NCBI GenBank assembly: GCA_964585935.1
Contig: CAZPFO010000001.1
Coordinates: 20,163 to 84,162, forward strand
Direction: 5' to 3'
From: an uncultured Methanosarcinales archaeon
GTDB taxonomy: Archaea > Nanobdellota > Nanobdellia > Woesearchaeales > GW2011-AR4
DNA length: 64,000 nt
Part shown: piece after piece, positions 1,273 through 24,393 of the stretch
Layout: every line of letters begins with the position of its first letter
Position numbering within the stretch: position 1 is the first letter of the stretch
Translations under genes and position numbers: made by a program
The notes under the pieces: model-generated
Databases searched by the model: none
What the model saw: the letters and a program-made list of their open reading frames with translations, nothing else
What the model was told of the DNA's origin: nothing

Positions 1273-1287
1273 ATGCCCCTACCGAGA
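1273..1287. repeat. attL-like copy of the tRNA-Arg 3' end
   Basis: atgcccctaccgAga matches 13703-13717 (atgcccctaccgGga) at 14 of 15 positions, with 12 of 12 exact at the start. Confidence 0.65.
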
Positions 1288-1322
1288 ATAGCTATAAACT
1301 TCCACTTTAAGGGAATACTTCA

Positions 1323-1472
1323 TCATGATGATGTTATAAACCTAATAAAAGAAGCATACCCCCACCACCCAATTAAAACTGCTGCAACTAATATAATGAT
1401 AAATATTATTATCCCTCTCCAACTTTCCTTTATGTAATTTACTAAATCCTTCTTCAATTCTTTCCAGTTCAT
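1323..1472 (-). CDS. small single-pass membrane protein (49 aa)
   Basis: Hand-translated as MNWKELKKDLVNYIKESWRGIIIFIIILVAAVLIGWWGYASFIRFITSS. It has an ATG start and one hydrophobic helix, and falls below the ORF-track cutoff. Confidence 0.3.
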   Translation of the reverse strand: MNWKELKKDLVNYIKESWRGIIIFIIILVAAVLIGWWGYASFIRFITSS

Positions 1473-1574
1473 CCAAAACTCCAACCTTCTTTAGGGATAA
1501 AGAGGTTCATTTCTTCTTCTTTGTTTCCTATGAATAAAGATGGATAGCCCCCTTTATATCAATAAAAGAGTTAA

Positions 1575-2339
1575 TTAAACAGAATCCATTAATGTAAATG
1601 TTGAGGAGTGTACTTCTTTATCTCCCTCTTGATTATTTTTACTTTCATAGAAATAATCTTCACAAATCTGATCTTTAAGTAATTGAGCCACAGCTAGAGT
1701 ACAATTTCTCTTTGCAGAACCATATGAGAAGATCATAATAAGTTTCTGTTTATTCCGCATTTTGTGGGTTATGATTTCGACAATAATCTTTTCTGTAATC
1801 TCTTTTTTAACAAAATAAGCGTACTTTTTCCACTCAATTATTATCTCATCAAAGGCATTGAGGATATAATCATTTTCATATTTTTTCTTTTTGAGATCTG
1901 ATAAGTAATCAACAACAGGAGCAATAGCCCCCGTTGTAACTAAATATACTATCTTAATCAAATTAACACCATTCGGTCTTTTGCGTATTGACCCCCTTAT
2001 CTCATCTCCTCTTACCCTATCCACCTCCTTTCCAGATTTATTTAAATGAGCTACAAGATATCCAACCCTGATTAAATCTGAATAATGATGATTTGGTAAA
2101 ATAGAACCAAATTCTAGGTAATATTCTCTTTCAGCAACCTTTTTAAGTATATCATTCTCTTCTTTGTTAGGCACAAATCCAAATTTCTTCTCTGCTGTCT
2201 TATCTTGGATAAGTTTCCTTATAGACTCGTAACCTTTTTTACCTAAATCCAGAATTTTTTTACCAGCAAGTAATTTCAGTGTATCTTTTAAATCCAAACG
2301 AGAAATAGCAGTAATGATAGCTTCAACATCCATTTTCAA
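1575..2339 (-). CDS. hypothetical protein (MGE-borne)
   Basis: 254-aa ORF that overlaps the upstream 83-aa ORF by 17 nt, which suggests an operon. No family recognised. Confidence 0.55.
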   Translation of the reverse strand: MKMDVEAIITAISRLDLKDTLKLLAGKKILDLGKKGYESIRKLIQDKTAEKKFGFVPNKEENDILKKVAEREYYLEFGSILPNHHYSDLIRVGYLVAHLNKSGKEVDRVRGDEIRGSIRKRPNGVNLIKIVYLVTTGAIAPVVDYLSDLKKKKYENDYILNAFDEIIIEWKKYAYFVKKEITEKIIVEIITHKMRNKQKLIMIFSYGSAKRNCTLAVAQLLKDQICEDYFYESKNNQEGDKEVHSSTFTLMDSV

Positions 2340-2574
2340 TCTTTTCCCTTAAATACCTAGAGATGGTAAGGGGATCAGAGTCTATTATTTTCAGTGAACC
2401 AGGCATAAATGCAGCATCTTTTAATGTCAATGGTTGATTTGTCCGATTAGAAATAATATTCTCCTTCAATAAGGTATCATATATTCTCCCTTCTTCGTCA
2501 ACACCATAACCATGAGCGCTTAACAATACTTTCTTCTCATCATCTGTAAGCTCTGCAAACTCAAATTCCTTCAA
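2323..2574 (-). CDS. hypothetical small protein (MGE-borne)
   Basis: 83-aa ORF coupled to 1575-2339 by an overlap. Confidence 0.5.
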   Translation of the reverse strand: MKEFEFAELTDDEKKVLLSAHGYGVDEEGRIYDTLLKENIISNRTNQPLTLKDAAFMPGSLKIIDSDPLTISRYLREKIENGC

Positions 2575-2774
2575 AAACTATCACCTTGTATTTAATTGGT
2601 TATCTTTACCATATATAAACGTTTCTGTTATGTATTATAGCCCATATCTTCCAGGGCATTTTTGTGTTAAAATAGGCTATTTTTCATTATGTTAGCTTAA
2701 TCAATTTTTTTTATCCAAAAGTCTAAAGATGTCATACAAAAAAGGCCTATTCTGTGACATTTTTCAATGTTTGC

Positions 2775-2996
2775 CTATCTGTACACCTTCATCCTGCCCT
2801 GATAAGTTTTTGATTTCCTTCTAAAAAGCACATCCCAATTTGGTGCTACAAGGCTATCTGTGACAACTTTAATATGGTTTAATGTCCAATCTAGGCTAAA
2901 CTTTAGAGCTGTGCTATCATTATCTATGTTTGTTAGAGCCATAAGTTGTTTTAACTTTGCAGCTTCCTCATCATTAAATCTGATTGTTATTCTCAT
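2775..2996 (-). CDS. ribbon-helix-helix (CopG/Arc-like) DNA-binding protein
   Basis: The N-terminus MRITIRFNDEEAAKLKQLMALT has the typical RHH beta-strand plus helix pattern. Confidence 0.5.
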   Translation of the reverse strand: MRITIRFNDEEAAKLKQLMALTNIDNDSTALKFSLDWTLNHIKVVTDSLVAPNWDVLFRRKSKTYQGRMKVYR

Positions 2997-3025
2997 CCTA
3001 AACCTCCATTCTTAGATTGATCCAT

Positions 3026-3301
3026 TTAAATTGAATTGAACATTGAAAATTTACAGATTAAGTAGATCATAACATAAGCATAAACAAATGCAATAAAACC
3101 CCATATAATCCCTAGAATTATACCATAAGCTAATGCAAATGTATATTGATTGTCTGAGACAGCAAACAAAAATTCATGGTTCATCATTATATAAATGAAG
3201 TTTATTAAAAATACACCTAAGCTAAAAAATATCGCAATCTTTAATGACTTCTTTCTATTGCTTCTTTCTAATGGCTCAATAATATAATGTTCTATTTTCA
3301 T
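3026..3301 (-). CDS. small integral membrane protein
   Basis: 91 aa with 2-3 hydrophobic helices (LKIAIFFSLGVFLINFIYIM..., YGIILGIIWGFIAFVYAYVMIYLI). It lies directly downstream of the 789-aa glycoprotein gene. Confidence 0.55.
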   Translation of the reverse strand: MKIEHYIIEPLERSNRKKSLKIAIFFSLGVFLINFIYIMMNHEFLFAVSDNQYTFALAYGIILGIIWGFIAFVYAYVMIYLICKFSMFNSI

Positions 3302-3340
3302 CTTAAATCCCTTATTTTTTATTAAAATAGGCTAATCATT

Positions 3341-5710
3341 TTACCCAAAAGCATTTTTTACTAGCCATATAATACCAAAAATAATTGGAACTACTACAAA
3401 GAATATTATCAATACGATAAAATTCCATAGAATAAAAGGGGATAATTCCATTCCAAATAGATTAACAGGTTCTCCTGAAAATAAAGATGAAAAAATATGA
3501 AGAATAGCACTTGAACCTACCACCAGTTTATAATTTCCCTGGCTGCCACAACCCATGACGGTTATTGCAGCTTCTTGTTGCTCTTCATCTACTTTGCATT
3601 TTATTGTATTCTCAAAAGTTAGATCTGCTTCAATAATAGCACCATCTTCAGCAAAAACACAATTATCCTCTAAATATGAATTGCCATTGATAGAAAACTG
3701 ATAAGTTCCTGAAGTATCACCAGTGTTCTTTATGATGAATGGAACATCTTTGGTAAATTGACCAACAGGCGCAAACATACTGATTAATCTTCCAGCCTTA
3801 GGCAAGAACAATTCCAGGCCACATATAGCAGCATCACCGCCACCTCCGCCGCCACCTCCACTACTGGGAGTTTCAGCTGCAACAACAGTAAAGTTTAACT
3901 CGTTGCCATTGTTAACCTCATTCCCGGAAGTATCTATCGCATAAAACACCAATGAATGTTCTCCCAAGATTGAAGTTGTAAAAGTATCTTTCCATTCTCC
4001 CTTTTGAGGATAACCATTATTTAAAACCATAGTTATATTAGTTTTATCTGTGTTGGGATCTTCAATCTCTACTTTAACGACATTAACACCTATTAAATCG
4101 CTAAAATTAACAAATAAATCAACTGTTTGTCCTAATGTAACCGAAGAAGAGCTTGTTCTATTTCCAAAAATTGAGGGGGCAGTTACATCCACCACTTCTA
4201 TTACTATGCTTGTTTGATTTACGATGTTAAAGCTGTCATTAACCCTAACTGTAAAATTTATGACGGCAGTTATGTTTGAATAGATTGTAAAGTTCTGTGA
4301 GCATTTATCTTTTGTTCCGCTTACAGAAAAATTAAATATTCCTTCTGCATTAGTTTGATTACTCGATATTTGACAAAAACTTAATTCAAAGTTATCTGAT
4401 ACATTTACAGTAACATTAATTGTAGAGTTTGCTTCTATTGAATTTTCTGATATATTGAATGAAAAATTTAAACCAGGATTTGAAGTATCTGTATATGAAA
4501 CATTAAGGAAAGGCCTTAAAGTTGGATCTACTGAATATTCTGTAGAGTGGAATGTATGTTGCTGTGCATTGCTTGCTATTGGAGGTCTTATAGCCATAGA
4601 AACATTATCTAAACCATTAGCATAGGCTTTTTTAACCATATTCCATACAATCCATTCATTCCAACTATCTACTACTGTAAAAATTTCTGATTCTGATGTA
4701 GAATTACATCTATGTGCTAAAGCAGGATCAAATTCTTCTTCATTCCCTGAATCTGCACCACAAGGTTGATTGTTCCAAGTTATTGCTGTTTCCTGCCAAT
4801 CTGCTGTAGGCTCTGATAAATTAACCTCATAAATCTTATCCACCCAAGAACCCTCAACTAATGTGGCATACATATTTACTGTTGCATTTGATATTGTAAG
4901 ATTGTCAGGCACTAATGAAAGATTAAATTTAAGATAGGTTGTTTGTCTAAAAGCCGAGTCTGCATGATTTTCAGTCCATAAATCAACATCAGTTCCATAA
5001 TTGGTATCTGGGTTTGCATGTTCTACATAACTATCTGCTGTTAGATTGCCTGGATGTTGTAGAATAATTGATGGATCGAGGTATAGTTCACCATCAATAA
5101 ATTTATCAGTTAGGTTACCTATGTATATCCTTTTTTCATTCGGCATTATATCAATAGTAAAATTATTTTCTGTTAAATCGTCAAATACCAATGTCGCTAT
5201 ATTTTTTATCTTATATTTTTTATTGTTTTTTGTGAGCTGAGATATATCAAAACCTTCATGCGATTTGTAAGTTAATGTTATGTTGCCTAATTTCTCTTGA
5301 ACAGCAACAGAAACATTACTAACATTTATGGCGTATTTCCAGGAAGTGATTTGTTTTTGTATTGGAAATTTATATATTATTGCTGGTTTTAATGTCTTAA
5401 TCTGAGCCATAGAAAAATAACTGCCGTCATAAATTGCTCCTACTTCAAAGGTTATGCTAAAATTTCCTTTGCTGCCATTATAGTTAAATGTTAGATCATC
5501 TCCACTTTTGGATATGGAAAAAACTTCAGAAGGATCAACCCAATTACTGCTTTTATCCTGGGTGTATCTTGCGCCGGAATAAACCACAGCATTACATATT
5601 CCATTATTGCAGGATTTCTCTGAGCTTTCTGTTCTCTCTACACTCGCAGAAACACAAGTAATTAACAGAATGAACATAAATACAAACATAGCGACAATTC
5701 TATTTTTCAT
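3341..5710 (-). CDS. large secreted, C-terminally membrane-anchored glycoprotein with a DNRLRE/CBM96-like domain (spike- or adhesin-like)
   Basis: It has a signal peptide (MKNRIVAMFVFMFILLITCVSA), more than 30 N-x-S/T sequons and a poly-Gly linker (SSGGGGGGGGD). The C-terminal TM is FILWNFIVLIIFFVVVPIIFGIIWLV. The segment DSYVEHANPDTNYG...TYLKFNLS...ISNATVNMY...WQETAITWNNQP matches the DNRLRE domain pattern. Confidence 0.7.
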   Translation of the reverse strand: MKNRIVAMFVFMFILLITCVSASVERTESSEKSCNNGICNAVVYSGARYTQDKSSNWVDPSEVFSISKSGDDLTFNYNGSKGNFSITFEVGAIYDGSYFSMAQIKTLKPAIIYKFPIQKQITSWKYAINVSNVSVAVQEKLGNITLTYKSHEGFDISQLTKNNKKYKIKNIATLVFDDLTENNFTIDIMPNEKRIYIGNLTDKFIDGELYLDPSIILQHPGNLTADSYVEHANPDTNYGTDVDLWTENHADSAFRQTTYLKFNLSLVPDNLTISNATVNMYATLVEGSWVDKIYEVNLSEPTADWQETAITWNNQPCGADSGNEEEFDPALAHRCNSTSESEIFTVVDSWNEWIVWNMVKKAYANGLDNVSMAIRPPIASNAQQHTFHSTEYSVDPTLRPFLNVSYTDTSNPGLNFSFNISENSIEANSTINVTVNVSDNFELSFCQISSNQTNAEGIFNFSVSGTKDKCSQNFTIYSNITAVINFTVRVNDSFNIVNQTSIVIEVVDVTAPSIFGNRTSSSSVTLGQTVDLFVNFSDLIGVNVVKVEIEDPNTDKTNITMVLNNGYPQKGEWKDTFTTSILGEHSLVFYAIDTSGNEVNNGNELNFTVVAAETPSSGGGGGGGGDAAICGLELFLPKAGRLISMFAPVGQFTKDVPFIIKNTGDTSGTYQFSINGNSYLEDNCVFAEDGAIIEADLTFENTIKCKVDEEQQEAAITVMGCGSQGNYKLVVGSSAILHIFSSLFSGEPVNLFGMELSPFILWNFIVLIIFFVVVPIIFGIIWLVKNAFG

Positions 5711-5730
5711 TTTTATTAACCTATAGAGGG

Positions 5731-5759
5731 GGATGTCTGGAGGAGGTCTCCAGACATCC
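5731..5759 (-). promoter_or_regulatory. perfect 12-bp GC-rich hairpin just upstream of the glycoprotein gene
   Basis: ggatgtctggag-gaggt-ctccagacatcc lies 21 nt from the ATG at 5710. It could be a terminator for the tiny upstream TM ORFs or a 5' UTR element. Confidence 0.4.
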
Positions 5760-6042
5760 TTGAATGACTTCAGATTTTATTAAGTTTTTTTCTTCATGAT
5801 CCAGAGTACAAAAATAATTAATAACATCGAAATAATTAATAACATCAACAGCCCACCTAACACCAAAACTGACAAATTCATAGCGCACCTGACATCTTCA
5901 TCCAAATAAATATTGCCAACAAGACTACAAAAACTGTAAAGGCAAACAGGCCTGTCAAAATTACAGATAGTTTAATTTCCATTGTAAAAGATAATTAAAC
6001 ATAATAACTATTTTAAATATTCAAAATTATACAATTATACAA

Positions 6043-6249
6043 TTATAACATTTTCTTAGTTTTGTCGAGCTGTTTCTTAAACTCCGCAAAATGGGAAGTT
6101 AATATCCTGTCTATAATTTTCTCCTTTGTGTTATCTTCCTCATTAAATAACTTATATGCTTCTATTAAAGTGCTTAATTCTTTGCTTATCCTGATGGTTG
6201 TTTTATTTTCAGGCACAACATCCAAAGCTAATTTTTTCATTTTAATCAA
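6043..6249 (-). CDS. hypothetical small protein (possible RHH or antitoxin-like)
   Basis: 68-aa ORF that overlaps the upstream 93-aa ORF by 8 nt. TTIRISKELSTLIEAYK resembles an RHH strand-helix. Confidence 0.4.
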   Translation of the reverse strand: MIKMKKLALDVVPENKTTIRISKELSTLIEAYKLFNEEDNTKEKIIDRILTSHFAEFKKQLDKTKKML

Positions 6250-6523
6250 TCTTACAATACCTCTTTATAGTTCCTCCTGGCCTTAAATCAAAATTATTAT
6301 AGTCGTGAACTGTTATGTAAAACAATCTTATGAATCTTCCAGTAAATCTGTGGTTGTAAACAGCAAAATAAGTTCCCTTGTCATAAGTTTCATAAATAAA
6401 GTTTGCTAATTGCTTGATTGTGAAGTCTTGTATCTTCTCTATTTCTATCAAATCAATATACTCTGATCTGCCGTTTAATCCTCTCCTGTTGTTCTCTACC
6501 CTTTGATGTAAATAGATATTCAT
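6242..6523 (-). CDS. hypothetical protein
   Basis: 93-aa ORF. No family recognised. Confidence 0.45.
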   Translation of the reverse strand: MNIYLHQRVENNRRGLNGRSEYIDLIEIEKIQDFTIKQLANFIYETYDKGTYFAVYNHRFTGRFIRLFYITVHDYNNFDLRPGGTIKRYCKID

Positions 6524-6618
6524 TTTATTGTTTATTACTAAACTAAATTATAGTTTAGTTAGTTTATAGTCTAACGAGTGGCCTATAACATATACTGTTG
6601 GTACTAAACTAACTATTT

Positions 6619-8091
6619 TTAACATAATTCTATTATCTTAATCCTACCTTGCCTTTTTCTTTTAATTTTGCTATTATTTTCCATATCCTTCAACAACATT
6701 GAGAGATGATCTTTTCTAATCCCTTCTTTTTGTATAATCTCTTTTGCAGTCTTTGAGCCATTTCTAACACTTTCAATTATCCTTTCTTCCCATGTTTTAC
6801 TATGCTCAACTTTTTGTTCTTTTTGTTGTTTTCTTTTTTCCTTTTCTTTCCTTAACTCATTGTATTCCTTGACAGCTTCATCCCACTCTGATCCAATTTC
6901 CTTCTTCTGTTCTTTTATATTTTTCATCTTGCCACCCAACTTTTGCCATGTTTTAATGAAATCAATACCCTCATATCTGTGCATAGTAGGTGGAGGTCTT
7001 ACTATAACTGTACAGGTTTCTTCTGGAGTCAAGCAGATACATTGCCCTGCTTTTAGAAATGGCAGATGTTTCATTATGTTGCTTTCGATCCTTATATCTC
7101 CTTTAAACCTCATAATAATTTCTCCAATCTCTTTTCTGTTGGTTAGCCTAAAAGCAAATAAATTTCCAACTTGGGTTCTTAAAGTATCTGAAACATTTAA
7201 TGGACTTTGTATATCTCCAACAATCTGGAGCTGTATGCTTCTCGCTTTTCTTGCTATCTGGTCAATATAATATTTTGAATAGCTTTTGGATTTGTCAAAA
7301 GGCTGCAATGGTGCTAAATCTCCAATTTCTCGAATCAAAACAACAACTTTTGGTTTTATTTTGTTTTCTGTCTTTAGATCATAAATCCTTCTCAGAAGCC
7401 AAACCACATTGAACATTGTAAGCTCCTCTGTCTTTAAGTAGCCCTGATGGAATACTGTAACTGTTTTTACATCATTAAGTTCTTTTACCAAATCAATACA
7501 ATAAGGATTATTTGCAGAAGTTACACAATTCTCCCTTATCAATGCGTTTAATGGTCGTATAACTCCTGCTAGGCTTCGTGTATCACTGATAGGGATAGGC
7601 ATACCACGTTCATAAATATGCCCTGCTTTAGTGGCCTTCTCTGAAAGTGTAATAAAGTCAGGAACCGTGTCTTTATTATTCATCTTGTTAAGTATTGAAT
7701 TGAAAATGTCCTCCTGGACATTGCTTAAATTCCCTCTGCTCAATATGTTCAACTCTGCTCCCTGTAGCTGATTCAATGGAATGGTATAAAGATGGTAATT
7801 TTCAGGCACTTCATTTGGCAAATTACTGCTCATAGGCAATAATATTTTTGTAGGCAATGCCCTTACTGGCAATTTTCTTTTTTCCAGCCATTTTCTAAAA
7901 CTTCCTTGAGCCTCTAAAGAAAAAAAAGCTCCTTCTATCCTGTTGTCCTGATTATATAGGTCAATTATTTTATAATCATGTTCATAAAAATAATTCCCTA
8001 TACCCTCTAATAAAGTTGATTTGCCAGATCCTGACTGTCCAACTATTAATGTGTGGCTTATTCTATTGGTTTTTAGTTTTATTCCTTCCAT
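6619..8091 (-). CDS. FtsK/HerA-superfamily P-loop ATPase (DUF87-like) with a C-terminal wHTH-like tail
   Basis: Walker A is HTLIVGQSGSGKSTLLEG, followed by KIIDLYN. A candidate Walker B is KPKVVVLIREIGD. The basic, coiled C-terminus ends in a wHTH-like segment (SKTAKEIIQKEGIRKDHLSMLLKDME). Confidence 0.65.
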   Translation of the reverse strand: MEGIKLKTNRISHTLIVGQSGSGKSTLLEGIGNYFYEHDYKIIDLYNQDNRIEGAFFSLEAQGSFRKWLEKRKLPVRALPTKILLPMSSNLPNEVPENYHLYTIPLNQLQGAELNILSRGNLSNVQEDIFNSILNKMNNKDTVPDFITLSEKATKAGHIYERGMPIPISDTRSLAGVIRPLNALIRENCVTSANNPYCIDLVKELNDVKTVTVFHQGYLKTEELTMFNVVWLLRRIYDLKTENKIKPKVVVLIREIGDLAPLQPFDKSKSYSKYYIDQIARKARSIQLQIVGDIQSPLNVSDTLRTQVGNLFAFRLTNRKEIGEIIMRFKGDIRIESNIMKHLPFLKAGQCICLTPEETCTVIVRPPPTMHRYEGIDFIKTWQKLGGKMKNIKEQKKEIGSEWDEAVKEYNELRKEKEKRKQQKEQKVEHSKTWEERIIESVRNGSKTAKEIIQKEGIRKDHLSMLLKDMENNSKIKRKRQGRIKIIELC

Positions 8092-8468
8092 TCTTCTTCC
8101 TCTTGTGTTTGTTGTTGTGGTTGTTGTGAGAGATTAAGTGATTTTAACTGTGTTTTATCTGCAAGAGTATCTGGTTTATAATTCATATCCTCTTCTTCTC
8201 CTAAAATATTTAGTTTCATCAAAATATGAGTAACAAAATTAATTGTCATTCCTATCTCTTCCGCAAGTATGCTACCTGCATCTTCTTGCATTGAACATCT
8301 TTGTAACTCTCTTATTGCAGGCTCGACATTGAAACAAATCCAGGGGTTCATAAACCCGCAAAATCTTTGTTCTTGTTCTATTGCCAATGTCATCTGGCCA
8401 GCAATTACTAAATCACGTATATCCTTAGTTCTCCTATATTGCCTGAATTGATTTTCTAATGGGTGCAT
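8079..8468 (-). CDS. hypothetical protein
   Basis: 129-aa ORF that overlaps the ATPase start by 13 nt. It has an acidic, Q-rich tail. Confidence 0.45.
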   Translation of the reverse strand: MHPLENQFRQYRRTKDIRDLVIAGQMTLAIEQEQRFCGFMNPWICFNVEPAIRELQRCSMQEDAGSILAEEIGMTINFVTHILMKLNILGEEEDMNYKPDTLADKTQLKSLNLSQQPQQQTQEEEEWKE

Positions 8469-8474
8469 TTTTGT

Positions 8475-9083
8475 TCAACCTCCTTGCTTTAATTTCTCTA
8501 CAAATGCATTAATAACTTTATCAGAAGGTACACACTTATATCCTGTCCCTGTCGGTATGGCTTGTTGGTGTTTTAATTGCTTAATCAATGCTTTATATTG
8601 ATCTTCTTCATTAGCTATCTCTTTAAAATTAGTAGCAACTTCTTTAATGAAAGCATACAATACTCCTGTAGGTAGATTGTCCGAACATGACTCTGTCAAT
8701 CTAACCCCTATTCGCCTTAAAACTTCGTTCAATAATTTAATATCATTCTCCCATAACTCTGCTAAAAATAAAGTAAAATCTTCTACTTTAATTCTGCCCA
8801 TGCTTTGCTCTAAAAGAGCTACATCAAAATTTAACCTTATGATACTATCTTGCTTCATTTTGTTTATAGCATAACACAACCTATGACATAAACATTCAAA
8901 GTATCTTTTATCTCCAAAAGTTATTGTATCTAACATATTATCTAAAATTCCCACACATTCGCCGTATGTTCTCGCGTCTTTCCAATATTCTGACACAAAC
9001 TCCATCGTTTTGAGTGGTTTATCTTTTTCTCCTTCCCCTCTTAATTTAGGGTAATAGTTTTTTTCTTCTTCCATTTTTATCAA
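8475..9083 (-). CDS. hypothetical protein
   Basis: 202-aa ORF in the same-strand gene string. No family recognised. Confidence 0.5.
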   Translation of the reverse strand: MIKMEEEKNYYPKLRGEGEKDKPLKTMEFVSEYWKDARTYGECVGILDNMLDTITFGDKRYFECLCHRLCYAINKMKQDSIIRLNFDVALLEQSMGRIKVEDFTLFLAELWENDIKLLNEVLRRIGVRLTESCSDNLPTGVLYAFIKEVATNFKEIANEEDQYKALIKQLKHQQAIPTGTGYKCVPSDKVINAFVEKLKQGG

Positions 9084-9100
9084 TCCTCCTTGTTTTTTTC

Positions 9101-9280
9101 TTAAAATAATGAATTGAAGTCCTCCATTATCTTCGCTTCTGTAACGCTTATCTGTGGATTTTTAGGGTTTTTTTCATTTCTTTGCCGGTGAGCCTTAACT
9201 CGGCATCCTGGGGCAAAATACACAGCTTTTTTGCGTGTTACCCAATTACCGCAGTTGCATGGGCAGAGATGTTTGTTCAT
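9101..9280 (-). CDS. small zinc-finger protein (59 aa)
   Basis: Hand-translated as MNKHLCPCNCGNWVTRKKAVYFAPGCRVKAHRQRNEK... The CxC..C...C.RVKAHRQR pattern is common in phage and plasmid small Zn proteins. Below the ORF-track cutoff. Confidence 0.4.
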   Translation of the reverse strand: MNKHLCPCNCGNWVTRKKAVYFAPGCRVKAHRQRNEKNPKNPQISVTEAKIMEDFNSLF

Positions 9281-9380
9281 TTTTTATTTCAGGTTCTCAA
9301 CAGCCTCCTCCGATTCTATTTCAATCATAGTTTTTCCATGCCCTAATGAATTTAAAAATTCCTTAGCCCTTTTGTCATCT

Positions 9381-11324
9381 TTATTTTTCATTTTGTTTTC
9401 CCTCCTTAGTTTTTTTAATTCGTTTTTGAACCTGCTTAGATTCAAAACAAGTTTTACATAAAGGTCTGCCTTCCTTGCTAAACTGATAGCAAGGGGTAGA
9501 ACCGCAGGAATGACAATTAAAATGGATTACTTCGGAATCTGGAGAATCTTCAATTGTTTCCTCCTGTACCTCCCCAGAAAGTGTCAAGTCAGTCAGTTTG
9601 TCAGAACTTGACTTGACAGTTTGTAAAGTGTCAGAGAAAGTGTCAGTATACCACTTGCCTATTTCCTCGTCTCTATACTGACAATCTGACACTTCTGACA
9701 CTTTTTTAAATAGTTCTTCTTTAGTTAAATACCCATTTCGTACAACTATCTCTGAAATTGTAAAAAAATCAAGCTCAAATCCCCTATTACAACCATCACT
9801 AGACCTAGTTCTAAAATTACCAAATCCTAGAGAAGTCATTAATTTTGTTACTTTATTGGTGCTTATTTTGTATTCTGTTTCTGAAGCTGAGACAAACTCA
9901 GATTTTAATCCCTGAGTTGAAATAAAAAAACTACCTTTATGTTTACAAAATTCTCCTACCAATACTTTTGCGAGAATTGACTCCCAGGTATTCTCATCGG
10001 CAGACTCATCTCTTATTGTAAAAAGTTTTGAGATAAAATTTCCCATTTCATTTTCTAACTTCACATCAATACATCTAGCCATAGCTATTAGTGGTTTGGC
10101 AATCAACCATTGTCTATTAATTAATTTATATTTATTCTCAACTTTAGTAAGGGCTTTTTGATATAACTTATAACTTAACAAGCCATTAACATAAGCAAAG
10201 TCCCTGCATTTTCCAAAATCAGGGTCGTTTTTGTCTGGCTCAATAGAAGCTCTCTTGTCTTTTGGATTAGCTTTAATCATAAACAACGATAAACTTCTTT
10301 TTTCAAGTGCCCCTTTGAGTGGTTTGATAGAACCAATACGAGTAAATCCGAAAGGATCAAACTCTTCGGTTATGTTTATGTTTTTGTCACTTTGCCTTGG
10401 GACATAATTACCTTTTTCATAGCTTCCATTCAAATATTCAACAAGTTCTGAATCTCCTACATTCTTTTTTTTAGAATCATCAAAAAGTTTTTCAGCCTCT
10501 TCGATAGATAGCGCCGATTTATTGTTGTGCCTATATCTAAAATAATTAGCAGGGGTTGGACATAAAAATTTTCTTCCATTAAACGCAAGATTAGAACTAA
10601 TTTTCATACCTTTACTTTTTGCGCTATCAGAAACGCCTTCATGCTTGATTATTACAGACTTATCAATCAGATCATAGAAGTAAGTACATTGATCCCAAAT
10701 AGCATTTAGATCATACCAACCATCTAGCTCAAATACCATCGATTCTGTATATTTTTTTTTAAATTCTTCATGTACTCTTCTGAATGACATAGCAAAATCT
10801 TTATAACCACCTTCAACAAATGTTTTAATTGAAGAAAGAGACCATCTATTTTCTTTAATTTGCATAACTGAATCAAAAACAAAATCACAGCCTCTAGGCC
10901 TTGAATATTTTGATATTATGCGACCATTTTCTAATATGATAGCATTAACTATTTTTTTTTGCCAAACAGAACCTTTTTCTTTTCTCACTTCAACATTCTC
11001 TAAAATATTTGCGCCATAATATCTATATTTTTTTTCATTGATTGTTATTGATCCAACTGCACTATCGATCCTCTCAGGTGTTTCTTCCTCATTTAAAATG
11101 AAACTACCAATCTTCTTTTCTGATTCAATCTCAATCTGTTTATTTTTTCTTATGATACTCTCTGCCAAGACTTCTTCTTGATTCTGTTTGTATTCCTCAA
11201 AATTGCTCCAGCTTTCTCCGGGATCGAGGATATAGCCCTCTCCAACATCTCTAATAATCCCTTTTTCATCTTTAACATAAGGAAGGCCTGAATCTTTGGT
11301 GGTCATTTCTTTTAACTTACCCAT
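9381..11324 (-). CDS. large MGE protein, putative replication/initiator protein with a C-terminal zinc ribbon
   Basis: 647 aa, the largest non-structural ORF of the element. The C-terminus is HFNCHSCGSTPCYQFSKEGRPLCKTCF (a 4-Cys ribbon). No Walker A and no clear primase motifs were found, so the function is inferred from size and position only. Confidence 0.45.
   Translation of the reverse strand: MGKLKEMTTKDSGLPYVKDEKGIIRDVGEGYILDPGESWSNFEEYKQNQEEVLAESIIRKNKQIEIESEKKIGSFILNEEETPERIDSAVGSITINEKKYRYYGANILENVEVRKEKGSVWQKKIVNAIILENGRIISKYSRPRGCDFVFDSVMQIKENRWSLSSIKTFVEGGYKDFAMSFRRVHEEFKKKYTESMVFELDGWYDLNAIWDQCTYFYDLIDKSVIIKHEGVSDSAKSKGMKISSNLAFNGRKFLCPTPANYFRYRHNNKSALSIEEAEKLFDDSKKKNVGDSELVEYLNGSYEKGNYVPRQSDKNINITEEFDPFGFTRIGSIKPLKGALEKRSLSLFMIKANPKDKRASIEPDKNDPDFGKCRDFAYVNGLLSYKLYQKALTKVENKYKLINRQWLIAKPLIAMARCIDVKLENEMGNFISKLFTIRDESADENTWESILAKVLVGEFCKHKGSFFISTQGLKSEFVSASETEYKISTNKVTKLMTSLGFGNFRTRSSDGCNRGFELDFFTISEIVVRNGYLTKEELFKKVSEVSDCQYRDEEIGKWYTDTFSDTLQTVKSSSDKLTDLTLSGEVQEETIEDSPDSEVIHFNCHSCGSTPCYQFSKEGRPLCKTCFESKQVQKRIKKTKEGKQNEK
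9579..9703. repeat. iteron-like cluster of five copies of AAGTGTCA/TGACACTT plus a 10-bp inverted repeat
   Basis: aagtgtca occurs at 9579, 9626 and 9638, and tgacactt at 9687 and 9696. tgtcagtata (9641-9650) pairs with tatactgaca (9675-9684). All lie inside the 3' part of the 647-aa ORF. Confidence 0.6.
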
Positions 11325-11505
11325 TGCTACCAGCCTCCTTCACTTTCAAGACCCTTTGAGCAGGAATAGAAATAATCTTACCACTTTTTAATTTAAATCT
11401 CACAAAAGAATTGACTTCCAAAACCTTAACCCAAACCTCTCGTTTAATATCAGTGTCGTCTAAAAACGCCACAAAATCCTTAAACTCATTTGTCTCAAAA
11501 CTCAT
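11317..11505 (-). CDS. hypothetical small protein
   Basis: 62-aa ORF that overlaps the start of the 647-aa ORF by 8 nt. Confidence 0.45.
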   Translation of the reverse strand: MSFETNEFKDFVAFLDDTDIKREVWVKVLEVNSFVRFKLKSGKIISIPAQRVLKVKEAGSNG

Positions 11506-11742
11506 AGTTAAACACCTCTTCTTAACTTAAAATTTTTTTCAACTTACATTCACAATTTCCTCCCTGTAACTATCAAAAAAATCATGAAAGTCATAGACTT
11601 CAATATTATCAAAATCTTTAATTTTTGTCTGCATTTTGATCCTCAATACCCTCCACAAGAACTTTATGGGCATGATCTAAATTACGAAAACCTTTATCTC
11701 GACAAATCTGTTCGACTTCCTGCAATATTTTATCTGTATTAC

Positions 11743-11886
11743 TCATTTTATCCCCAATTGATTTGAATAAATTTGAATGGATTTTTCTACGAAAGAAGAT
11801 TTGTTTCTTCTGTCAAATTCAGCCCCTTTATTCAATAAATCAAGGCTTTTTTTGTCAAGTGTTATGGAGATAGTTTTTCTTACCAT
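11743..11886 (-). CDS. ribbon-helix-helix (CopG-like) protein (47 aa)
   Basis: Hand-translated as MVRKTISITLDKKSLDLLNKGAEFDRRNKSSFVEKSIQIYSNQLGIK, a classic RHH pattern. Below the ORF-track cutoff. Confidence 0.45.
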   Translation of the reverse strand: MVRKTISITLDKKSLDLLNKGAEFDRRNKSSFVEKSIQIYSNQLGIK

Positions 11887-12012
11887 TTTGAATATCAGGT
11901 TGTATTAGGTTATGTGTAACATTTAAGCATAAGTTATATTTAAATGTTTTGGTAATTTATATACTACAACACATAAATATTTATAAATACTTATATTCTA
12001 ATATATTCTAAT

Positions 12013-12669
12013 ATGAGGTCAAAAATAAGTGAATTAAATACTATTGAAAAAACAGAAATAGAAAATTTGAGGATTACTTCTCAATATCCAATAATAAAGG
12101 AAAATATTATTTTGTTAAAACAAAATTTATTACCATCACAATTATTTTGTTTACAATATACAATTAAATCCCAAAAACCAAATACGACAAGGCAGTATTA
12201 TGTTTCTATTGTCCATGAATTTTTTATTAGGGAGTTTGGACATAACACGAGTGAACTCAATGAAGTAATAGAAAACCTACAGAATAAAATAAAGAAAAAG
12301 TATGGATTTGAAAATATGTCAAGAAAAGATATTATTGCTAATCTTTTAGTTGACAAAAACATTTATCTTCTTTTAAACCAATCTTTGATGGATGTAGAGA
12401 ATAAAATGAAAAAAGAGGTGGGTGTTAAATTAGATTGGTCCATAACAAATAAGACGGCAATAATAGAAATTATATTAAGAAAAATGAAAGTTAAATTTCC
12501 AACATATACAAAGATTAGCAATTCACTTGAAAAATTAAAATCTTTTGGATTTTTATCTAAGATTGTCGAAGACGGAAAAACTTATTGGACACTTAATAAT
12601 AGATTTTTTTTAGAGTTTAAAGATAAATTTAAGGATATTTTAAAATTAGATATTAATTCTTTTTTGTAA
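12013..12669 (+). CDS. hypothetical protein with a C-terminal wHTH-like segment
   Basis: 218 aa, and the only plus-strand gene of the element. KISNSLEKLKSFGFLSKIVEDGKTYWTLN resembles a winged-helix recognition helix plus wing. Confidence 0.5.
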   Translation: MRSKISELNTIEKTEIENLRITSQYPIIKENIILLKQNLLPSQLFCLQYTIKSQKPNTTRQYYVSIVHEFFIREFGHNTSELNEVIENLQNKIKKKYGFENMSRKDIIANLLVDKNIYLLLNQSLMDVENKMKKEVGVKLDWSITNKTAIIEIILRKMKVKFPTYTKISNSLEKLKSFGFLSKIVEDGKTYWTLNNRFFLEFKDKFKDILKLDINSFL

Positions 12670-13642
12670 CCATCGTTGTAAGAACTGCTATTGCTTTTTC
12701 AAGTTTATCCATTCTCTCCTGCTGCTTCTGATTCTCTTCTTTGAGCTTTAATAGTTCCGAGCTGAAAACCTTTTTTGCTCCGATTAAATGAGCAGACTTT
12801 GATCTTCTTACATAAGTTTTTAATTCCTTTGCGCTGTAGCTCCAGCCGTACCTATTTGCCAGGGCAATGAGGTCTCCATGTAGGAGTTGAGCATAGAGCG
12901 TTGCTGAACTATGCCTTAAGCATTGAATATTAAGTTTAATGCTTATTGCTTTACTGCTTGCATTTCCTAACATCTTTAGGTAAGATCCATAATTAACATT
13001 AAACAACTTATTGTCATTATTTAGGCTTTTATAATACACTCCGTTAACAAACGCTTTAATATCCTCTGTAAATAATTGTATTGGAATGGTTCTTGGCTCT
13101 GTCTTTGATTCATTGCATTTAATCCAAAAACACTTATTTCCATCTTCATCAAAAACATCCCAGGTTAAATCCTTTTTTAATGCAGAGAACATTTCAGATT
13201 TTCTAAAGCCAGAATCAAAAAACATCAAAGTTAGTATTCTATACTCGAGCTTGTCAAACTGAGCTGCAACTTTCATTATATCATCTTGAGAAGTTGTTGG
13301 CTTTTCTTTTGGCTTTTCATCCTTGCCTATTGTCGCCTTGATCCATGAAACTTCTTTTGGATAGTTTTCATCTTCTCCCCTTGTATGCTTAAAATACTGC
13401 TTTAGGAATTTCTTTATATCCGCCTTAGTTGATCCTGAGAAGTTACTGCCATCATTCTTTTTTATGATGTTTCTGTTAAGGTTATTCAAGAAGTTTTCAA
13501 TCTGCTCTCTCTTCGCTGTTTCTAGGTTAATGTACTTGCTTGTTAAAGTAAACATTACTTTAAGCTTTTTTATCCTTTGCTGCGTAAGCTGCTGGTTCAA
13601 TAGGTGGTTTTCATATTCCTTCCAGGAAGCAACCTGTTTCAT
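12653..13642 (-). CDS. int: tyrosine recombinase / phage-type integrase
   Basis: 329 aa. The C-terminal catalytic region is ...CLRHSSATLYAQLLHGDLIALANRYGWSYSAKELKTYVRRS (R-H..R/H...Y pattern). The N-terminal SAM-like domain lies next to the tRNA att site. Confidence 0.8.
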   Translation of the reverse strand: MKQVASWKEYENHLLNQQLTQQRIKKLKVMFTLTSKYINLETAKREQIENFLNNLNRNIIKKNDGSNFSGSTKADIKKFLKQYFKHTRGEDENYPKEVSWIKATIGKDEKPKEKPTTSQDDIMKVAAQFDKLEYRILTLMFFDSGFRKSEMFSALKKDLTWDVFDEDGNKCFWIKCNESKTEPRTIPIQLFTEDIKAFVNGVYYKSLNNDNKLFNVNYGSYLKMLGNASSKAISIKLNIQCLRHSSATLYAQLLHGDLIALANRYGWSYSAKELKTYVRRSKSAHLIGAKKVFSSELLKLKEENQKQQERMDKLEKAIAVLTTMVTKKN

Positions 13643-13702
13643 AATACCTAGAAAATACTAACTCCTATATAAATTATTCCCCCAATATGGAAGTTTATAA
13701 GT

Positions 13703-13717
13703 ATGCCCCTACCGGGA
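13703..13717. repeat. attR-like core, which is the 3' exon end of tRNA-Arg
   Basis: atgcccctaccgGga is the direct repeat of 1273-1287. Confidence 0.65.
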
Positions 13718-13847
13718 GTTTCGCGCATAAGTTTCGAGTGTGCCATAAATTTGCTATGCAAATTTAATTTCACCAAAATTTAATGCCAATCGAACCCGGG
13801 TCACAAAGTCCGCAACCTTGTATTCTTATCCATTAAACTATAGGGGC
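13704..13847 (-). tRNA. tRNA-Arg(GCG) with a ~69-nt intron in the T-loop
   Basis: The minus strand reads GCCCCTA-TA-GTTTAATGGATAAGAAT-A-CAAGG-TTGCGGA-CTTTG-TGAC-CCGGG-TTCGA[~69 nt]CT-CCCGG-TAGGGGC-A. The acceptor (GCCCCTA/TAGGGGC), anticodon (CAAGG/CTTTG) and T (CCGGG/CCCGG) stems all pair. The D arm is irregular. Confidence 0.7.
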
Positions 13848-13984: not shown

Positions 13985-15058
13985 ATGGTTAAGATGAATG
14001 AACCAAAACGCTCACCAGGAATAGACCATAATATTTTAGTAGTTAGTAGAGATACTAATACAATAGACAGTATAACCTCTATTTTAGGAGACCGGATTCC
14101 GATTGACAAAAGATATAATATTAAACCAACCACTGATTTTGAAGAAGCTGTTGGGGAATTAAAGAAAAGTTTTTATGAAATTGCTATCGTATCTTCTATC
14201 GAAGAAAGCGATAAGAGTGTTGATTTAATAAAGCATATCAATGATTCTACAGATTTAGAAACGTTAGTTATTGCATTAACACCCAGAGTTTTAAATGAAA
14301 ATCTAAATAACAGGGCTCTTGACGCTGGTGCTACCCTTCTTGAACCAGTTCCAATTTGCCCTGCGAATCTACGTAATACTGTGGAAAGGACACTTGAGAT
14401 ATTGGGAGGTTACACTGATCCATTAACCAAACTATATAAGAAAGAGATATTTCATGAAAGGCTTGGAAAGGAACTAAAAGACCTTTATGGTAGGAGGGAA
14501 GAAGATCACGAGATTGGGAAGGAAAAAAGACACGGAATTAAACAAGCTAGTTTTTTAAAAAGAGCTTATCGAAAAATAGTTACCGAAAATGCTGATCAAC
14601 GTATTGGTGATAACTGCTATTCTTTGTTGTTTATGGACCTTGATAGATTTAAGGGGATCAACGACAAATATGGGCATGGTGTTGGTGATAAGGTATTAAA
14701 AGAAGTTGCAAGTGCAATTACAAGTATAACGCGTTCATCCGATATACAATCAAGGTGGGGCGGGGATGAATTTGGGATTGGTATCAGAGGGTGTAGTTAT
14801 GAAAATGCATTAAATGTTGCTCAAAAAATACTAGAAGCAGTAAATAATATTGAGATTTATGCAGATAGTGAAAGAATTCAAATTGCGACTTCGATTGGGG
14901 TCGTCACCGCTACTACTGGGGAAAAATTCATAGTGGAAGAATTTTTTAAAGCCGCAGATGAAACACTTTACCATGCTAAAGGATTCGGGAGATGTAATGT
15001 AAAAGGCTATCCTGATTATCTGGCTGCTAATAAAGCTAAATTAGCTAATACTAAATAA
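13985..15058 (+). CDS. diguanylate cyclase: degenerate receiver-like domain plus GGDEF domain
   Basis: 357 aa. The GGDEF domain reads LLFMDLDRFKGINDKYGHGVGDKVL...RWGGDEFGIGI. An RxxD I-site (RSSD) sits five residues upstream of GGDEF. The N-terminal CheY-like fold (ILVVSRD..., VIALTPR) lacks the phospho-acceptor Asp. Confidence 0.85.
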   Translation: MVKMNEPKRSPGIDHNILVVSRDTNTIDSITSILGDRIPIDKRYNIKPTTDFEEAVGELKKSFYEIAIVSSIEESDKSVDLIKHINDSTDLETLVIALTPRVLNENLNNRALDAGATLLEPVPICPANLRNTVERTLEILGGYTDPLTKLYKKEIFHERLGKELKDLYGRREEDHEIGKEKRHGIKQASFLKRAYRKIVTENADQRIGDNCYSLLFMDLDRFKGINDKYGHGVGDKVLKEVASAITSITRSSDIQSRWGGDEFGIGIRGCSYENALNVAQKILEAVNNIEIYADSERIQIATSIGVVTATTGEKFIVEEFFKAADETLYHAKGFGRCNVKGYPDYLAANKAKLANTK

Positions 15059-15609: not shown

Positions 15610-16887
15610 TTAATGTGAATACAAAGACGGGCCTGAACTATCAAGTGAGGGATTAGCTAAGTTGATTAGCTTAGTTCTCCCTGTACTGTCAAATACTTTT
15701 TTAAATAATTTAACGGATTTTGGGTCAAACTGGCTACCCGTATCTTGGACTAATACATTCATCGCTTCCTGGGGTGTTTTTCCTTTTCGGTAAGGCCTTT
15801 TACCAATCATTGCCTGAAATGCATCAGTAACTGCAAATAGGTTGACTGTTCTTGGTAGTTCAGATGAATGAATTCCATGAGGATATCCTTCCCCATCATA
15901 TCTTTCATGATGATGCAATACAATTTTCCCTGCATCGCCAGGAAGAGTTGAGCCAATAATTTTATATCCGTTTTCCGGGTGTTGTTTAACCGTTTCATAC
16001 TCTTCATTGTTTAATTTTCCCGGCTTATTCAATATGTCCTCAGGTATTCCAATTTTTCCAATATCATGCATGCTTCCGCCCCACAAGATTGAATCTAACT
16101 CATCCTGACTAAACTTTCTTTTAGAGGCTACATATATCGCCATACCTACAGCTCCTTCTGAATGCACAGCTGTCCAATCGCTTTTTACTGCAAGAGACTT
16201 ATACATCAAGTTAAGCGTAGACTCATGCTGCCCCATATATATAAAATAGGCCGAAGTCTTGAAAGCAATATATTCAAATAACCACCTTTCCTGATCATTG
16301 AGCCTATGTCCGGAATTTCTATTTGCAACAAGCGAGCCTACAATGCGTTTTCCCATGTAAATAGGGGAAGCCATATAATGAGTAGCGGTTATGTCTTTTT
16401 CTGACGGATTTGGAACTAAATCCATACCCCTTTGAGTATACTTATGTTCCGTGATTCCTGTACTCCGCATGACTTCCTTTCCGGCAGCTTTTATCCTTGC
16501 AATAACATCCTTACCGGATCTTTTACTAAAGTCTATGGTTGAACCGCGTATCATCAGGGCATTTTTGCCCAGGGCCCCCTCCTTTTTTTCCATGAGGGTT
16601 ACATCAGCCTTAAATTCATCAGAGATTAAGCCGACTAATTTTTCTGCAGGCGGGGGGATAAGGTGGGTGTTGCTATACTCTGCAAAAAGAGAATAAATTT
16701 TTTTATCAAATTCGTTTGTCCTTCTGTAAATCGTATTTTCTTGTGATAATCTTTTTTTTTCTTCGATTGCAGCGCAATATAATTCTATAATCGGTGTTGT
16801 ATCTTCCTTTCCACTAACAATCTTAGAAAGAGCCTTCTTAAGGTCATCCACATCTCCTGAACTAGCTTCACCCCCTCTATCATTCAT
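15610..16887 (-). CDS. GAF-domain HD-GYP phosphodiesterase (c-di-GMP hydrolase type)
   Basis: 425 aa. The C-terminal HD-GYP domain reads HSEGAVGMA...GGSMHDIGKIGIPEDILNKPGKL...HHHERYDGEGYPHG. A GAF-like sensor region lies N-terminal to it. Confidence 0.85.
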   Translation of the reverse strand: MNDRGGEASSGDVDDLKKALSKIVSGKEDTTPIIELYCAAIEEKKRLSQENTIYRRTNEFDKKIYSLFAEYSNTHLIPPPAEKLVGLISDEFKADVTLMEKKEGALGKNALMIRGSTIDFSKRSGKDVIARIKAAGKEVMRSTGITEHKYTQRGMDLVPNPSEKDITATHYMASPIYMGKRIVGSLVANRNSGHRLNDQERWLFEYIAFKTSAYFIYMGQHESTLNLMYKSLAVKSDWTAVHSEGAVGMAIYVASKRKFSQDELDSILWGGSMHDIGKIGIPEDILNKPGKLNNEEYETVKQHPENGYKIIGSTLPGDAGKIVLHHHERYDGEGYPHGIHSSELPRTVNLFAVTDAFQAMIGKRPYRKGKTPQEAMNVLVQDTGSQFDPKSVKLFKKVFDSTGRTKLINLANPSLDSSGPSLYSH

Positions 16888-20141: not shown

Positions 20142-20245
20142 TTTAAAAGGGAGATTTCCGGGGTTTATTAAATTTTTTAAAGATATGATGAAATAATAAC
20201 AAAAATCCAATAAATATATAAATAACTTTAATAAAAAATATATCC

Positions 20246-23816: not shown

Positions 23817-23961
23817 TATGATACCCCTCCATTTTTTTGAGCATAATTTTAAAGTGTTGTTATTCTAAAATACTAACTGGTATTTAAACTTTTCGAATAG
23901 TAAAAATAAGTAAAAGTTAAATCAAGGAGAGCACTGAATCTCAAGACAGGATAGTGAAAGA

Positions 23962-24075: not shown

Positions 24076-24119
24076 AGTGATATTAAATTGGCAACGCCAA
24101 TTTATGGCGTTTACCAAAA

Positions 24120-24235: not shown

Positions 24236-24393
24236 AAAACACTATTGATAGAACCTTTGATTTATTTATAAAACTTTCTGAGTTTTTCTGCTTGAGAAGA
24301 GAAATGTGTTTGGATAATAAAAAAGATATACAAGAAGTTTTATAAAGACTGCTTTTTTCCCGAATTCTAGATGAAGAACAAGATGTGAATACT

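Follow-up and report, generated by a model that had tools for sequence, protein, structure and literature searches.

An integrative mobile element in a tRNA-Arg gene of a DPANN archaeon encodes a surface glycoprotein, small membrane proteins and a HerA-fold ATPase

The window analysed here, a stretch of 64,000 nucleotides from contig CAZPFO010000001.1 of an uncultured archaeon, contains an integrated mobile element of 12,418 bp (about 1285-13702). The genes at 3026-8091, which an earlier note made from the sequence alone had described as a virus-like module of a spike-like glycoprotein, small membrane proteins and an FtsK/HerA ATPase, belong to this element, which occupies the 3' end of a tRNA-Arg(GCG) gene. 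This assignment is firmly supported, as is the conclusion that it codes for a surface glycoprotein of its own, for four small membrane proteins and for an ATPase with HerA fold and a predicted DNA-binding domain. With a little less than even confidence, we favour the interpretation that the element is capsid-less and membrane-based, i.e. either a temperate virus of pleomorphic or spindle type or a plasmid carried in membrane vesicles.

The element is bounded by an exact 12-nt direct repeat (ATGCCCCTACCG; 1273-1284 and 13703-13714), which consists of the last 11 bases of the tRNA-Arg gene and one further base. The right copy overlaps the 3' exon (exon 2) of tRNA-Arg(GCG) (13704-13847, minus strand). 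The left copy, a duplicate of the tRNA 3' end and the distal attachment (att) site, is intergenic and lies at the point at which the guanine-cytosine (GC) content shifts; the sequences flanking the two repeats are loosely alike. Default runs of ARAGORN and Rfam had indicated that there was no tRNA at the element border. This was a false negative: the default tools miss the gene because of a 71-nt intron in its T-loop (13717-13787), and ARAGORN returned a perfect 73-nt cloverleaf once the intron had been spliced out by hand. Directly beside the tRNA gene lies an intact gene for a tyrosine recombinase of 329 amino acids (aa; 12653-13642, minus strand). Its RH..W..Y box was recognised by eye, and its sole family match is a weak one to XerA (E 4e-6; 26.6 bits compared to an NCBIfam cut-off of 220). 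Repeats that duplicate a tRNA 3' end, together with an integrase gene that adjoins the intact tRNA, are the hallmarks of tRNA-targeting integrative elements, and the element would have been inserted at the 3' end of tRNA-Arg(GCG) by its own tyrosine integrase. Its GC content is 32.2%, and every other 12.4-kb segment of the remaining 50 kb shows a higher value (34.0-36.5%). An ordinary chromosomal S-layer or adhesin locus without mobility could be considered in view of the apparently chromosomal members of the glycoprotein family (see below). The att repeats at the tRNA 3' end, the adjoining integrase, the dip in GC content and the orphan genes all argue against it, and since it is contradicted by the element boundaries we give this explanation next to no probability.

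From its seryl-tRNA synthetase (49596-50885, plus strand), which shares 63-75% identity with proteins from metagenome-assembled genomes of Woesearchaeota, Nanobdellota and Pacearchaeota, the host is assigned to the DPANN archaea and there to the Woesearchaeota/Nanobdellota type. The enzyme is of the bacterial type and, after these DPANN relatives, Firmicutes are next best with 50-55% identity, which suggests an old horizontal transfer. Elsewhere in the window, ARAGORN with intron search detected two adjacent intron-containing tRNA genes, tRNA-Ile GAT and tRNA-His ATG (23960-24236, minus strand), neither of which was seen in the default run; the anticodon of the latter is doubtful.

The gene at 3341-5710 (minus strand) encodes a 789-aa type-I membrane protein with all features that had been read from its sequence, namely a signal peptide, more than 30 sequons, a CBM96/DNRLRE domain, a poly-glycine hinge and a C-terminal anchor. 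It starts with a hydrophobic, signal-like segment, followed by a domain which we term N-domain (residues ~20-215), the CBM96/DNRLRE domain (about 223-408), a beta-rich region with most of the sequons (410-610), a run of eight glycines (Gly8, 618-625) and a membrane-proximal domain, and it ends with a hydrophobic transmembrane (TM) anchor. The carbohydrate-binding domain is assigned well above the thresholds, with 73.3 bits for PF24517 at residues 223-398 (CBM96, Pfam cut-off 26) and 90 bits for NF033679 (DNRLRE, NCBIfam cut-off 34). All of the 31 N-x-S/T sequons are located within residues 78-606. Composition-preserving shuffles of the protein yielded 12.5 +/- 3.1 sequons, with a maximum of 24 in 2000 trials, and two host surface proteins with PKD domains in the window have one to two sequons each. 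This enrichment suggests that the protein is glycosylated.

Relatives were found only for residues 20-408 and consist of the N-domain, with identities of up to 49-54%, and CBM96 behind it; the 380 residues at the C-terminus are unique to this protein. The conserved N-domain fused to CBM96 is an undescribed domain. In the modelled half of the glycoprotein, the fold matches were phage CBM96 and pectate-lyase (tail) proteins, and no pleolipovirus protein was among the matches in BFVD. An identical copy of the glycoprotein (100% identity, P0002, with a later start codon called) is present on a second NCBI contig of 10,678 bp, a length near that of the element; this contig could be an independent assembly or an excised form of the element.

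Scans with the N-domain revealed homologues on one IMG/VR contig and 16 metagenome contigs. Nearly all homologues of which the N-terminus lies inside the contig start with a hydrophobic leader, and those of full length contain 44-99 sequons each. Their loci have only this gene in common. On a 75-kb IMG/VR contig (L094), the homologue belongs to a series of co-directional genes that includes those for a terminase (E 1.8e-46) and a portal protein (E 5e-31), with PHROG-matching genes on either side. In three other cases (L004/L005, L099 and L105) it lies in collinear arrays that code almost wholly for membrane and secreted proteins, and some loci stand beside ordinary cellular genes and are apparently chromosomal. 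Given these varied contexts, the cassette of N-domain and CBM96 is therefore a surface-recognition module that is not specific to viruses. It belongs to low-GC organisms, probably DPANN archaea, and their mobile elements. Three further observations were made on individual contigs. On L094, the terminase and portal genes are followed at 4628-7969 by a gene whose 1113-aa product contains an ATP-dependent DNA ligase domain and which is oddly placed there. A 929-aa protein encoded on L004 gave no matches. We do not claim contig L001 as a tailed virus: its 773-aa protein has only a weak PHROG match to a major head protein (E 5e-5) without support from the PDB.

The second large protein of the module is a soluble ATPase of 490 aa (6619-8091, minus strand), the gene for which lies upstream of the glycoprotein gene. 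It contains a Walker A motif at its extreme N-terminus (GQSGSGKS, residues 18-25), a Walker B motif with its glutamate (249-255), the conserved residues R284, D293 and Q295, a long helix (393-431) and a C-terminal winged helix (434-489). Sequence profiles of FtsK, HerA and AAA_10 matched marginally and DUF7343 matched the C-terminus below threshold, but the predicted fold is clearly HerA-like. Among close relatives G18, G21, G23, K24, S25, E255, R284, D293 and Q295 are invariant. The AlphaFold (AF2) model, based on an alignment of 27 relatives, reached a mean predicted local distance difference test score of 90.6. Its best matches in the PDB using Foldseek were Thermococcus HerA-NurA, Sulfolobus HerA, Deinococcus HerA and SIR2-HerA (E 3e-14 to 1e-11, template modelling scores ~0.5), with DUF4297-HerA also among the best folds. 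In the viral library a phage HerA-like protein ranked first, followed by the ATPase of the haloarchaeal virus PH1, a corticovirus NTPase and A32-type packaging ATPases. The C-terminal end is modelled as the long helix followed by three helices and a beta hairpin, which together form the winged helix.

With Walker A and B motifs, a conserved arginine, a conserved polar residue and the HerA-like fold (E 3e-14 to 1e-13 against HerA in Foldseek), the protein is placed in the FtsK-HerA superfamily. It is distinct from HerA proper: it has no N-terminal HAS barrel, because Walker A is already located at residues 18-25, and neither a NurA nor a defence-effector partner was found in scans against Pfam and PADLOC. 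An anti-phage defence island based on HerA, situated beside a surface-protein gene, would be in line with the PADLOC scan, in which the models for HerA and mad8 matched weakly (E 1e-8 to 1e-3), and with SIR2-HerA and DUF4297-HerA among the best folds. No Sir2, DUF4297 or other effector partner was found, however, the neighbouring genes are without PADLOC match, and the family has a winged helix in place of the barrel; we consider a defence island very improbable. Identity with VirB4/TraG was rejected as well, as the scores remained far below the cut-offs for VirB4_CagE (14.5 bits compared to 643) and TrbE (14.1 compared to 810) and below that for AAA_10 (20.8 compared to 27.5), and no VirB6- or VirB3-type partner families were detected among the proteins of the element. 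The earlier note had contrasted its viral analogy with a chromosomal adhesin accompanied by a conjugation ATPase. This contrary picture holds in one half, since the glycoprotein cassette also occurs beside ordinary cellular genes, and fails in the other, as the ATPase is not of the VirB4/TraG type. One homologue of the cassette is part of a tailed-virus contig.

The ATPase represents an undescribed family. A HMMER scan of 1.8 billion cluster representatives revealed at least 265 related clusters (50% identity), 16 of them with E-values below 1e-30. Nearly all relatives are soluble proteins of ~500 aa with Walker A at the extreme N-terminus, and 149 of 150 family members have no TM segment. A word-index homology search recovered only the ATPase itself. 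One relative with 26% identity (P0042) is encoded on a 30-kb contig (L006), together with many small cysteine-rich proteins, a DUF5131 protein, a Dam methylase, small TM proteins, a 563-aa protein with signal peptide, C-terminal anchor and 29 sequons, and another secreted protein of more than 1000 aa. Even with so divergent an ATPase, the set of genes seen in the element, with an anchored glycoprotein and small TM proteins, is therefore encountered again. The hidden Markov model (HMM) of the family further matched proteins of two haloarchaeal plasmids (E 1e-45 to 1e-60) and, more distantly, ORF375 of the virus PAV1 (E 4e-9), for which hhalign gave a probability of 53% over the region from Walker B to the sensor. 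Two other PAV1 proteins, ORF528 and ORF898, were tried as relatives and were unrelated on comparison.

Small membrane proteins lie on both sides of the glycoprotein gene, as the earlier note had observed. Immediately downstream, a 91-aa protein with two hydrophobic segments is encoded (3026-3301, minus strand). BLASTP against VP3 of the pleolipovirus HRPV-1 gave no match, although such short hydrophobic proteins are not comparable by sequence, and there was no significant sequence similarity to VP21 of His1 or to two-TM proteins encoded on L005. On the latter contig, from Loki's Castle sediment, three paralogous genes for a two-TM protein of ~107 aa follow one another at 7981-9170, and likewise at the end of L004. 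One of the proteins has a cysteine-rich insert; they have no relatives in IMG/VR and could be spindle-virus capsid proteins or pilins. Upstream of the glycoprotein gene lie two open reading frames (ORFs) for single-TM peptides (5780-5982, minus strand), of 34 aa (5878-5982) and 33 aa (5780-5881), which are translationally coupled by an ATGA overlap. The shorter of the two contains an exact 17-nt tandem duplication (5812-5846) that doubles part of the hydrophobic helix. A further ORF of 53 aa at the left end of the element (1323-1484, minus strand) contains a hydrophobic segment, its TM character being judged by eye.

Several DNA repeats accompany these genes. About 20 nt upstream of the glycoprotein start lies a perfect 12-bp inverted repeat (GGATGTCTGGAG / CTCCAGACATCC, 5731-5759) with a 5-nt loop. 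It is unique in the window and GC-rich in an otherwise AT-rich genome, and may act as an operator or as a hairpin in the RNA. Behind the ATPase gene, a gap of 95 nt is filled with direct and inverted repeats of 9-11 nt (ACTAAACTA / TAGTTTAGT, 6536-6615) in at least four copies; they are a candidate binding site for the winged helix of the ATPase or for a regulator. In the AT-rich gap upstream of the two mini-ORFs, GTATAATT occurs three times in tandem (~6023-6047), possibly as promoter elements.

Nearly all genes of the element are located on the minus strand and most have no match anywhere. Read from the integrase, three small ORFs are followed by ORFs of 647, 59, 202 and 129 aa and the ATPase gene. 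After the repeat-filled gap come ORFs of 93 and 68 aa, the AT-rich gap, the two mini-ORFs, the palindrome and the glycoprotein gene, and then the gene for the 91-aa protein and ORFs of 73, 83, 254 and 53 aa. The 647-aa protein (9381-11324, minus strand) ends with a Cys4 zinc ribbon and may, by its position, be a replication protein; it had no match in Pfam, PHROGs, NCBIfam, the PDB, plasmids or phages. The 202-aa (8475-9083) and 129-aa ORFs (8079-8468), tightly packed upstream of the ATPase gene (8079-9083, minus strand), showed no family match in Pfam, PHROGs, NCBIfam and PADLOC. The 93-aa (6242-6523) and 68-aa ORFs (6043-6249; together 6043-6523, minus strand) encode small soluble proteins. 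Left of the 91-aa protein, a 73-aa protein (2775-2996, minus strand) without PDB match may be a ribbon-helix-helix (RHH) regulator according to a pattern recognised by eye, an 83-aa protein (2323-2574, minus strand) had no PADLOC match, and a 254-aa protein (1575-2339, minus strand) had none in Pfam, PHROG, NCBIfam, PADLOC or the PDB. The sole sizeable gene on the opposite strand encodes 218 aa (12013-12669, plus strand) and gave sub-threshold matches only. No recognisable capsid protein was found among the ten element proteins of at least 83 aa that were scanned against Pfam, PHROGs and NCBIfam, in agreement with what had been noted before.

Four arguments lead us to favour a membrane-based particle. 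In its size and minimal gene set, the element matches pleolipoviruses, His1, wyrdviruses and PAV1. Conjugative elements known from archaea exceed it severalfold in length (median 64 kb) and carry VirB4, VirD4 and VirB6 (PMC6563490). The gene combination recurs, as seen on L006. Finally, FtsK-HerA ATPases are established as packaging motors of membrane-containing viruses. The matches of the ATPase in the viral library, its tie to PAV1 ORF375 and the cassette homologue between terminase, portal and PHROG-matching genes on L094 also speak for this interpretation. According to the proposed mechanism, the 789-aa protein would be exported, heavily N-glycosylated and held by its C-terminal helix, so that the cassette of N-domain and CBM96 could face outward as a glycan-binding adhesin for the recognition of recipient cells. 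The 91-aa two-TM protein and the 33- and 34-aa TM peptides might be the hydrophobic building blocks of a particle or vesicle membrane. The soluble ATPase may form a ring, read the DNA of the element via its winged helix and move it into or out of the membrane compartment. The integration, the borders, the domain layout, the ATPase fold and the recurring gene combination are demonstrated, while we infer glycosylation, the formation of particles and the roles of the small proteins and of the ATPase.

A number of results weigh against this interpretation. No protein of the element matched a deposited virus. The comparison with pleolipovirus proteins, which had been suggested as a check, showed no relationship: hhalign of the glycoprotein alignment against HRPV-1 VP4 gave a probability of 0.1%, and that of the ATPase family against HRPV-1 VP8 gave 0.6% over 26 columns around the P-loop only. 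In the C-terminal half of the glycoprotein, the model of residues 411-759 is too poor to judge the fold. The homologue of the cassette on L096 adjoins radical-SAM genes and that on L105 a family-2 glycosyltransferase. Single-protein scans of IMG/VR and the genome collection with members of the ATPase family, including the haloarchaeal homologue, returned nothing, as did tblastn with three family members against deposited phages and archaeal viruses. In the haloarchaeal islands (L010 9243-14435 and L011 11386-14807), ~10 membrane proteins are encoded upstream of one or two paralogous ATPases, followed by a protein with an MCM OB domain only and, further downstream, an integrase; this layout recalls a machinery for secretion or transfer no less than a virus. 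ATPases of the ORF375 type are common to PAV1, pTN2-type plasmids and a Methanococcus provirus, and ORF375 belongs to the plasmid-like half of PAV1 (PMC3543421), for which reason the tie to PAV1 does not discriminate between virus and plasmid. Lastly, two small genes and two intergenic regions lie between the ATPase gene and the genes for the membrane proteins.

Some of these results would fit an integrative plasmid with contact-dependent transfer, in which the ATPase pumps double-stranded DNA through a pore of small TM proteins, as TraB does in Streptomyces, and the glycoprotein joins donor and recipient. Such a plasmid would be a minimal cousin of the pT26-2 type, a family that likewise unites TM proteins, a carbohydrate-binding protein, a HerA/VirB4-like ATPase and an integrase. 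The haloarchaeal homologues in runs of membrane proteins with two paralogous ATPases point in the same direction, as does the absence of the ATPase family from the virus collections searched. A C-terminal winged helix on a motor of the FtsK superfamily is moreover the arrangement of TraB and FtsK-gamma. On the other hand, the ATPase has no TM segment, as is the rule in its family, and signatures of VirB4, VirD4 and VirB6 were not found in Pfam and NCBIfam, where matches cover the P-loop only and remain far under the cut-offs. The element encodes only four tiny TM proteins, and its 12.4 kb are far below the length of conjugative elements known from archaea. A relationship to pT26-2 in sequence is not expected, and the pT26-2 paper reports homologues only inside its own family. 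We regard transfer by contact as unlikely, although it deserves serious weight.

The position of the ATPase gene allows another explanation. It ends a packed run of genes (647, 59, 202 and 129 aa, ATPase) with tiny gaps or overlaps, and is thus organised together with the putative replication genes, whereas the genes for the glycoprotein and the small TM proteins make up a unit of their own. As this run stands apart from the membrane-protein genes, the ATPase may serve in replication instead. The element could then be a cryptic integrated element with two unrelated halves: the ATPase and the 647-aa protein would act in replication, resolution or partition, and the glycoprotein and TM proteins would be cargo that remodels the host surface, for instance in the attachment of DPANN cells to their partners or in the exclusion of other elements. 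The gene for the MCM-OB protein directly after the haloarchaeal ATPase homologue is in line with this, as are the varied and in part apparently chromosomal contexts of the cassette, whose homologues are secreted and rich in sequons without any other gene common to their loci. The element also matches the 'cryptic integrated elements' of Krupovic's scheme, in which such an element may represent a new family of viruses or plasmids (PMC6563490). Against it speaks L006: on this unrelated contig, an ATPase of the family again occurs with a sequon-rich glycoprotein anchored by a TM segment and with small TM proteins, which would not be expected of random cargo. The membrane genes moreover occupy about one quarter of a very small element. 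We regard this possibility, like transfer by contact, as unlikely but deserving serious weight.

Returning to the membrane-based particle, a more far-reaching proposal can be formulated, which we hold tentatively and consider somewhat unlikely as a whole. The element may be the first example to be recognised of a new group of DPANN viruses that are temperate and have no capsid. Their particle would be a membrane that bears CBM96 glycoproteins, and the genome would be loaded into it by the HerA-fold ATPase, which reads the DNA with its winged helix. The ATPase family would then mark a widespread, unnamed class of archaeal mobile elements that extends from low-GC sediment archaea to haloarchaeal plasmids and, distantly, PAV1. 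Little is known about mobile elements in DPANN archaea, tiny symbionts that rely on surface contacts. The present element is compact and cleanly bordered and encodes both a glycan-binding surface protein and a HerA-type motor not described before; it is hence a concrete test case for the movement of DNA between DPANN cells. Searches with the ATPase family could uncover a whole class of archaeal elements overlooked by current detectors of viruses and plasmids, and tRNA genes with T-loop introns can conceal integration sites from standard tools. Interest in the element would rise substantially if the formation of particles, or a link between ATPase and membrane glycoprotein throughout the family, were shown.

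Other genes of the window lie outside the element. Beside the integration site, motifs suggest a diguanylate-cyclase-type protein (13985-15058, plus strand, GGDEF) and an HD-GYP-type protein (15610-16887, minus strand, HHERYDGEGYP); cyclic-di-GMP genes are unusual in DPANN archaea. An archaeal helicase gene (17043-20210, minus strand) is split by an intein with a LAGLIDADG homing endonuclease domain. Fused shikimate enzymes are encoded at 39982-43250 (minus strand), namely a dehydroquinase-shikimate dehydrogenase (495 aa) and an EPSP synthase-shikimate kinase (594 aa).

In comparison with known systems, the analogy to pleolipoviruses drawn in the earlier note stands in part. The element shares with the Pleolipoviridae a small genome (~12 kb), a spike-type protein with signal peptide and C-terminal anchor, an adjacent small multi-TM protein, one NTPase and the lack of a capsid gene, and some members of the family integrate in tRNA genes via tyrosine integrases. 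Gene order and ATPase do not agree. The core of HRPV-1 is collinear in the order VP3-VP4-ORF6-ORF7-VP8, whereas in the element the order is ATPase, 93 aa, 68 aa, mini-TM ORFs, glycoprotein and 91 aa, with the ATPase away from the membrane genes; counterparts of ORF6 and ORF7 were not identified in the element. The pleolipovirus ATPase is described as AAA+, that of the element has a HerA fold with a winged helix. The likeness to pleolipoviruses is thus one of architecture only.

Spindle-shaped viruses (His1/Halspiviridae, Wyrdviridae and PAV1) encode a capsid protein of ~80 aa with two hydrophobic segments near a large adhesin gene. The 91-aa protein has the architecture of the capsid proteins of His1, SSV1 and wyrdviruses without sequence similarity to VP21, a comparison that covers sequence only. 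VP27 of His1 resembles the 789-aa glycoprotein in its signal peptide and C-terminal anchor, and in PAV1 adhesins with lectin domains are interleaved with small membrane proteins, an RHH protein and the P-loop ATPase ORF375. DPANN spindle viruses with tyrosine integrases are known. The ATPases of wyrdviruses and fuselloviruses are pI-like or DnaA-like AAA+ proteins, in contrast to the HerA fold found here.

Plasmids of the pT26-2 family occur in Thermococcales and Methanococcales. They encode an integrase and a HerA/VirB4-like ATPase besides many TM proteins and one protein that binds carbohydrates, and DNA secretion has been proposed for them. Like the element, pT26-2 and the vesicle-borne pR1SE are integrative and have a core of membrane proteins, and movement of DNA through membranes or in vesicles has been proposed. 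The pT26-2 plasmids differ in their size of 17-38 kb, their 12 conserved core genes and their host lineage, compared to one large and four tiny membrane proteins in the element; the likeness is one of gene content by description, and a sequence relationship is not expected. The ATPase resembles HerA in a structural match over about 400-470 columns, the Walker A and B motifs and the conserved Arg and Gln, and differs by an identity of only 13-16%, the lack of the HAS barrel and of NurA, and the addition of a C-terminal coiled helix and winged helix. The CBM96/DNRLRE domain is a clear member of its family; here, in a mobile element of an archaeon, it is fused to the N-domain and to a membrane anchor. 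By architecture, the element is therefore closest to the spindle-shaped viruses and to plasmids of the pT26-2/pR1SE type, and homology places three things only, the CBM96 domain, the HerA fold and the distant tie to PAV1 ORF375.

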